From a virus (taxonomy: Duplodnaviria; Heunggongvirae; Uroviricota; Caudoviricetes): a DNA stretch of 7,290 nt. The notes under the pieces were generated by a model. It was not told where the DNA came from and made no database searches. It saw only the letters and a program-made list of their open reading frames with translations. The stretch's first letter is position 1, and each line of letters opens with the position of its first letter. The stretch lies in IMG/VR virus record IMGVR_UViG_2695420523_000003; one strand, given 5' to 3'. Shown here piece after piece: positions 3,069 to 4,089 of this stretch. Both the position numbers and the translations under genes were made by a program.

Positions 3069-3392
3069 ATGGATGCACAAACACGCCGCCGCGAACGTCG
3101 CGCAGAGAAACAGGCTCAATGGAAAGCAGCAAATCCCCTGTTGGTTGGGGTAAGCACAAAACCAGTTAACCGCCCTATTCTCTCGCTGAATCGCAAACCG
3201 AAATCACGAGTAGAAAGCGCACTGAATCCGATAGACCTTACGGTGCTGGCTGAATACCACGAACAGATTGAAAGCAACCTGCAACGTATTGAGCGCAAGA
3301 ATCAGCGCACATGGTACAGCAAGCCTGGCGAACGCGGCATAACATGCAGAGGACGCCAGAAAATTAAAGGTAAATCTATATCACTTATTTAG
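3069..3392 (+). CDS. N: Antitermination protein N (107 aa)
   Basis: [28 protein letters not shown]...[10 protein letters not shown] matches lambda N, including the arginine-rich boxB-binding motif. An AGGAGA Shine-Dalgarno precedes the ATG at 3069. The track ORF starts at an upstream in-frame ATG (2991), which is not the N start. Confidence 0.9.
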
Positions 3393-3879
3393 AAAATGCA
3401 GATTTAGGGAACAGATAGGAGGCGTTACACCTATGGCATCTCATCCTATGGTTAGAAGGTGGTGCAAATCCTTCGTATTGAAGTATGGATTTCACAGAAG
3501 ATTCATAGCATTGAGCGCAAAGATAGTGCATTGGCTGACCGGTATTTGCCGATTTTTTGAGACGATAAACCACCGTAGCAACAGTAGGTGTATACATCTC
3601 ATAGTTTTTCTTTTCCTCTTCCCACTTAGAGGCTCGATTTATCTTTTCTTCAAGCTCAATAATCTTGTCCTTAGAAATCATCAAAAGCTCATTAAGTGAC
3701 ATTTGCTGCTGTTGGGCATCCATGAGCTTATCGACAAGTTCGTATGTTTTTTCTTTTACTGAGTAGTCTATTTGCATTTTCTGGATTTCCTTTACTGCGC
3801 CAACAGCACTCATCAGAGCACCTCCGGCACCAGAAACTGCATCTGTAATCCTACTTATTATTCCTTTTTCATCAGACAT
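3385..3879 (-). CDS. Hypothetical protein (164 aa from ATG 3879; 167 aa if GTG 3888): Gly/Ala-rich N-terminal segment, central charged coiled-coil-like region, C-terminal CxxC...CxxC zinc-ribbon-like motif. Convergent with N.
   Basis: Long uninterrupted ORF on the - strand in an AT-rich stretch. A weak AAGAGAG Shine-Dalgarno lies before the ATG at 3879. The C-terminus LCAQC...(about 25 aa)...CHRC is a typical four-Cys zinc-ribbon spacing. The middle section ([50 protein letters not shown]) looks helical/coiled-coil. I recognise no lambda or 434 homologue. Confidence 0.6.
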
Positions 3880-4089
3880 ATAAATCACTCTCTTACTGTA
3901 GGGGTAAGAGGATTTTACTATTTTTCTCGCTGTAGGGGTACACGAGAACCACCGAGCCTGATGTGGTTAAAAGACAGGCATACTAATAAACACTGCACTG
4001 TGTATTTATTCCAACGAGTGAATACACGGAGCAATGTCGCTCGTAACTAAACAGGAGCCGACTTGTTCTGATTATTGGAAATCTTCTTT

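Follow-up and report, generated by a model that had tools for sequence, protein, structure and literature searches.

The primary paper on the antiphage protein Rip1 (ring interacting pore 1) is that of Patel et al. (2026, Nature 651:1060, doi 10.1038/s41586-025-10075-1). According to a review (PMC13434031, section 5), Rip1 was found in a Pseudomonas aeruginosa prophage, where it lies between the small- and large-terminase genes, and it is mostly prophage-borne. [quoted passage not shown] Cryo-EM placed 12 Rip1 molecules around an 11-mer small-terminase ring; the N-terminal part is described as an amphipathic helix, and the C-terminal half touches the terminase ring. With a pore at its centre, the complex lets dye escape from liposomes and perforates E. 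coli, and the outcome is premature lysis ahead of phage maturation (PMC13434031). This mechanism is corroborated by a meeting report (PMC12908700) and a citing paper (PMC13601566).

Rip1 resembles two other kinds of system, Avs1-3, which sense the large terminase, and TerI, which senses the small terminase, in that all of them detect conserved late proteins of tailed phages and kill the cell. In Avs proteins, which are large STAND NTPases, sensor, ATPase and effector are distinct domains; Rip1, at 164 aa, lacks any enzymatic domain and gains its effector through templated oligomerisation on the target ring. A further comparison is with SieB of phages lambda and P22, an integral membrane protein that causes abortive infection. 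SieB and Rip1 occupy the same slot in the same orientation, in the case of lambda with shared upstream DNA. Each is carried by prophages and aborts the infection of other phages. The two proteins share no sequence similarity, however, and Rip1 makes a pore only after it has assembled on a phage ring.

The DNA analysed here (“the window”) is a 7,290-bp stretch of a lambdoid prophage that covers its immunity and early-left region; pL transcription runs on the plus strand. The gene order is O, cII and cro (minus strand), then a 434-type cI, a Hex-like ORF and N, followed by the ORF under study, ea10 (DUF2528), cIII, kil, gam, bet and exo. At 97-98% identity, 90-91% of the window is covered by phage 434 and lambda imm434, and the interval between N and ea10, in which the ORF lies on the strand opposite the pL operon, is the sole substantial gap in this coverage.

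Near the repressor gene we noted a further ORF. It follows closely on the 434-type cI, encodes 134 aa from an ATG at 2313 (2313-2717, plus strand; 2241-2717 in its longer form) and belongs to phrog_2651 (“unknown”). Its counterpart in the phage 434 record is the “repressor protection protein” Hex, and that record cites PMID 23303392 and notes that the start codon had been wrongly inferred. The N-terminus of the Hex-like ORF resembles a signal peptide, which fits oddly with cytoplasmic protection of the repressor from RecA. The rex/hex position beside the repressor is occupied by an NYN-domain protein in phage ev099 (2431-3288 of the retrieved locus) and in a Proteus prophage with a Rip1 homologue of its own (6173-6997 of the retrieved locus). 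This NYN-domain gene is likely to be another lysogen-expressed accessory or defence gene.

A PDB sequence search with the product of the minus-strand ORF between N and ea10 retrieved entry 9oox, “ring interacting pore 1 (Rip1)”, with 164 aa and 12 chains (chain L, E = 1.4e-105). The entry, released on 2026-02-04, is titled as the cryo-EM structure of Escherichia phage HK446 Rip1 with the Enterobacteria phage T6 small terminase. The window protein and HK446 gp37 (YP_007111990) are identical at 163 of 164 residues (99.4%). At the DNA level the two genes differ at 2 of 495 nucleotides, one of them synonymous and the other giving Y96 in the window and H96 in HK446; residue 96 is a variable column among the homologues. 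The copies in ev099, 720R6 and E. coli CFSAN064035 show no nucleotide difference from that of the window. The feature is thus already known, as the orthologue of HK446 Rip1 at a distance of one residue. It is very probably rip1, a prophage-encoded single-protein antiphage defence in which sensor and killer are one molecule, and we infer that the present copy is active. For the near-identical HK446 protein, others have shown the complex with the T6 small terminase, pore activity and escape mutations in the small terminase. The original prediction, made from the raw sequence, had proposed that a horizontally acquired moron in the sieB slot acts on its own, from the lysogen, in abortive infection or exclusion, and in this it was right in kind. 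It had also called the ORF unrecognised, a description that is out of date since the family received its name and its structure was determined early in 2026; it is the annotation databases alone that have fallen behind.

The extent of this lag is evident from the searches. Pfam, NCBIfam and PADLOC 2.0 (2023) gave no match to the ORF above threshold, and PHROGs gave only an unnamed family, phrog_1244 (“unknown function”). A Pfam match to Zn_ribbon_4 (PF13717) was found below threshold, at 13.2 bits against a cut-off of 30.3. Pfam, PHROGs, PADLOC, NCBIfam and RefSeq/PGAP are still without a name for Rip1. In the ev099 RefSeq record, gp46 (“hypothetical protein”) is placed at 4134-4400 of the retrieved locus (plus strand), equivalent to window 3433-3699 (plus strand), and rip1 is unannotated; the record looks like a strand misannotation.

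The rip1 coding sequence occupies 3385..3879 on the minus strand (164 aa plus stop). A longer form of the ORF, 3385..3888 (167 aa), would begin with a GTG at 3888. We take the ATG at 3879 (MSDEKG...) as the start, because it is the start annotated in HK446 and 720R6, it is common to 22 of 22 homologues and the PDB construct has 164 aa; an SD-like AAGAGAG run lies 5′ of it. N ends at 3392 and the rip1 stop codon is at 3385-3387, so that the two convergent genes overlap tail to tail by 8 bp (3385..3392). Several features claimed by the original prediction are borne out here: a real minus-strand ORF of 164-167 aa, convergent with N; a Gly/Ala-rich N-terminal segment (residues 14-29); and a C-terminal pair of CxxC motifs about 25 residues apart, found as CxxC-N23-CxxC (C121, C124, C148 and C151). 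Two of its statements need qualification. It had the interval hold a single ORF, but plus-strand ORFs are also present at 3433-3699 (88 aa, antisense to rip1) and 3772-4050 (92 aa), although neither is supported. It had also described the region as more AT-rich than its surroundings, which holds against N, bet and exo (GC content of 0.396 for the rip1 coding sequence versus 0.495, 0.523 and 0.532; N, gam, bet and exo together span 0.48-0.53) but not against ea10, which is equally AT-rich (0.382).

We predicted the structure with AlphaFold2 from 22 homologues (mean pLDDT of 72.6). The model matches chain M of 9oox in Foldseek (E = 7.6e-17, TMt of 0.89, rmsd of 2.4 Å over 126 columns), and no other fold in the PDB was significant. 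The confident and conserved part of the protein is the C-terminal beta domain (codons 93-164, 3388..3603, minus strand), which contains the Cys4 motif; its strands (93-158, pLDDT of 82-89) flank both CxxC knuckles, and the four cysteines would bind zinc. Upstream of it, codons 39-90 (3610..3765, minus strand) form a long central helix (pLDDT of 58-82), the charged helical middle anticipated from the raw sequence. The N-terminal helix (codons 7-34, 3778..3861, minus strand) is modelled with pLDDT of only 44-58, is rich in small residues and is moderately amphipathic (hydrophobic moment of 0.35-0.41). The most hydrophobic 19-mer of the protein falls within it (residues 11-29, Kyte-Doolittle value of 1.28), below a classical transmembrane segment. 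Only 124-126 of the 164 residues are modelled in 9oox, and the N-terminal helix is apparently the part that is missing there. This helix is presumed to be the membrane-inserting, pore-lining part of the protein.

Rip1 belongs to a large family. A word-indexed search found 29 close relatives in Enterobacterales. A weak and partial match to a Solobacterium MAG was disregarded, the other relatives in the close-alignment locus search being all from Enterobacterales. A profile search of 1.84 billion representatives returned 2,962 clusters with E ≤ 1e-3, and 1,387 when the limit was set at E ≤ 1e-10; the family thus has about 3,000 clusters at 50% identity. The cluster representatives are almost all 150-175 aa long and match end to end; the sole distant taxon named in the cluster look-ups is Eikenella, with one family member. 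Y93 and the four cysteines are invariant in sets of 22 and 36 homologues, down to 22% identity, and L76, W86 and Y105 are nearly invariant in the 36-sequence sample. The intact frame is present at ≥99% identity in 96 of 5,426 complete E. coli genomes (~1.8%), always on the chromosome and always annotated “hypothetical protein.” An open frame with this number of intact copies and related clusters is more than a product of chance. In Pantoea (62% identity) and Proteus (45%) the homologue likewise has an N-like gene as its immediate neighbour, towards which it is transcribed, and the repressor lies on one side of the pair and the recombination genes on the other.

Among sequenced phages, tblastn found the family in 56 records, including 31 Pseudomonas Mu-like phages (D3112 orf25, DMS3, JBD30, MP38 and MP42 among them). 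JBD30 gp30 has 164 aa and is 30% identical over residues 13-153 (E = 6e-26). It is encoded between gp29 and the large terminase gene gp31, on the opposite strand, in the context described for the Pseudomonas founder. These Pseudomonas homologues share with the window protein the helix-helix-Cys4 beta-domain architecture, a location on the strand opposite the surrounding operon and a temperate phage as carrier. They differ in lying in the late region between the terminase genes, whereas the rip1 of the window is in the early-left sieB slot, and in their trigger, which according to the review PMC13434031 is the portal ring for the Pseudomonas protein and the small-terminase ring for the E. coli protein. 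The opposite-strand accessory arrangement also occurs in HK446, 720R6, ev099, the E. coli, Pantoea and Proteus prophages, and JBD30. In HK446, rip1 has the same length and start codon as in the window, and it lies on the opposite strand directly downstream of N with the same 8-bp overlap. The backbones differ: that of HK446 is HK97-like with Erf and Abc2, whereas the window is imm434 with a lambda-type early-left region (ea10-cIII-kil-gam-bet-exo), and rip1 is followed by an “anti-restriction protein” gene in HK446 but by ea10 in the window.

A more distant relative is HkaP of phages HK620, HK629 and HK630 (gp40 in HK630, at 2498-2992 of the retrieved locus), which also has 164 aa and aligns with Rip1 at 27% identity (pairwise E = 3e-13) with all four cysteines in register. 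It is encoded on the opposite strand in the same N-proximal early-left slot but, unlike rip1, is separated from the N-like gene by hkaQ. By its sequence HkaP is a deeply diverged Rip1 paralogue, and it might recognise a different ring; as far as our search went, we found no characterisation of it.

Comparison with lambda shows how rip1 is fitted into the slot. Homology to lambda ends at the N stop codon (window 3392), resumes at 3895-3980 and again from 3985, at 98.7% identity, into ea10. The 3385..3392 overlap is therefore also the left mosaic junction with lambda. The segment at 3895..3980 (minus strand) corresponds to the 86 bp directly 5′ of the lambda sieB start codon, at 87% identity. 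Given homology junctions at the N stop codon and in the sieB 5′ region, the rip1 coding sequence replaces that of sieB almost base for base; it sits exactly at the sieB coding position. Lambda sieB also lies on the strand opposite N and abuts the N stop codon, and convergence with N is not unusual. The right mosaic junction is at 3981..3984, where a 340-bp orf28-ral block that is present in lambda (2235-2574 of the retrieved locus) and in E. coli CFSAN064035 (20597-20936 of the retrieved locus) is absent from the window. Homology to phage 434 resumes at this same base (3985), which suggests a recurrent recombination junction. Just upstream of ea10, at 4088-4109 (plus strand), is a strong terminator-like hairpin of 8 pairs followed by TTTTTTAT. 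The phage 434 record labels this hairpin a terminator; it is conserved in lambda and oriented in the pL direction, after the rip1 cassette.

Phage 434 itself has a different gene in the slot, and the claim that the ORF matches nothing in lambda or 434 stands. The 434 gene encodes a 289-aa “Nun C-terminal peptide-containing protein” that is co-directional with N (31773-32642 of OL657226.1, 1274-2143 of the retrieved locus). It is another alternative occupant of the sieB/rip1 slot and a possible exclusion gene.

Several alternative functions were weighed against Rip1. The position and orientation are exactly those of lambda sieB, the 86 bp of sieB 5′ region are kept and both proteins cause abortive infection, so one could take the ORF for a functional SieB analogue that acts in superinfection exclusion at the inner membrane by the poorly understood SieB mechanism. 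Homology to SieB is excluded, however (BLASTP E = 9.4 against the lambda protein), no hydrophobic stretch typical of a transmembrane segment was found (the best 19-mer is the one given above), and a near-identical protein has a different, structurally defined action. A SieB-like mechanism is therefore very unlikely. Just as unlikely is a counter-defence or regulatory zinc ribbon, either a ral-like anti-restriction protein, the other option raised by the original prediction, or a nucleic-acid-binding regulator of early-left transcription. The absence of ral from the window, the frequency of CxxC...CxxC motifs in nucleic-acid-binding zinc ribbons and the weak, sub-threshold Zn_ribbon_4 match would fit such a role. 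But in the E. coli CFSAN064035 prophage the order is N - rip1 - ral - ea10, with ral intact, and since both genes are carried there rip1 is not a substitute for ral; the anti-restriction option is unsupported. Against the zinc-ribbon reading as a whole, rip1 is on the strand opposite the pL operon, the complex in 9oox is with a small-terminase ring, and the literature reports a defence phenotype (PMC13434031).

It is also conceivable, though extremely improbable, that the region encodes the 88-aa plus-strand ORF (3433-3699) instead, or that it is non-coding. The ev099 record (NC_049953.1) annotates that plus-strand ORF and omits the minus-strand gene, and the frame is fairly open in the homologues. 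This openness is a weak test, because a frame in this codon register is the usual shadow of a coding strand, and 3-7 stops interrupt it in the genes of Pantoea and Proteus. The minus-strand frame, by contrast, is intact in every homologue down to the most distant, with its cysteines unchanged; its product has been purified and its structure solved (9oox), and HK446, 720R6 and PGAP all call the minus-strand gene.

With the ORF read as rip1, the following course of events can be proposed. The Rip1 monomer would be made in the lysogen and be harmless by itself. Once a second phage has entered the cell and begun late gene expression, its small terminase would form a ring; with the Pseudomonas homologues, the portal would take this part. 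About 12 Rip1 C-terminal domains would then dock around this ring, so that oligomerisation is templated by the packaging protein of the invader, and docking would gather the N-terminal amphipathic helices into an inner-membrane pore. The cell would be permeabilised and would lyse before the progeny are finished, which amounts to abortive infection.

That rip1 is expressed in the lysogen is inferred from three observations: the gene runs counter to the repressed pL operon, it has kept the sieB leader, and its family is reported to give defence from prophages. The shared segment at 3895..3980 is presumed to be the promoter or leader for rip1 in the lysogen. A scan for sigma-70 promoters gave no convincing site ahead of rip1, the sole nearby minus-strand match being inside the first codons, and a literature search for the lambda sieB promoter gave nothing usable. 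Two copies of the 9-mer CCCCTACAG, 34 bp apart, precede the rip1 start closely on the minus strand (3896-3904 and 3930-3938), against an expectation of 0.03 by chance, and both are also found upstream of lambda sieB (~2149-2234 of the retrieved locus). A hairpin at 3890-3910 lies beside the ribosome-binding site and has the proximal copy of CCCCTACAG in its loop. Folding of the 121 nt upstream was not significantly better than that of shuffled sequences on either strand (z = -1.9 and -1.3). The CCCCTACAG pair may act as a conserved regulatory element in the sieB/rip1 leader; alternatively, it may belong to a terminator for the pL direction, on the opposite strand.

A more speculative idea, which we consider doubtful, is that the placement of rip1, behind the conserved sieB leader and tail to tail with N, is itself regulatory, that N-antiterminated pL transcription after induction runs antisense through the whole of rip1 and silences it, and that the sieB slot is a generic “lysogen-on, lytic-off” socket. 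If true, antisense shut-off would spare the prophage from having its own packaging rings trigger Rip1, and unrelated defence cassettes (sieB, rip1, the HkaP-type paralogue and the 434 Nun-like gene) would swap at exact boundaries of their coding sequences.

The main value of the result lies in a clean validation and in a correction to the annotation. A reading of the raw sequence, made with no tools, picked out a single-gene abortive-infection determinant whose publication in Nature preceded the freeze of the databases used here by only months. To this the analysis of the slot adds a modest point, that rip1 sits behind the upstream DNA of sieB itself, with or without ral. This marks the position just downstream of N as a site where defence cassettes are exchanged and where it makes sense to look for more of them, with the HkaP-type paralogue and the 289-aa gene of phage 434 as examples.
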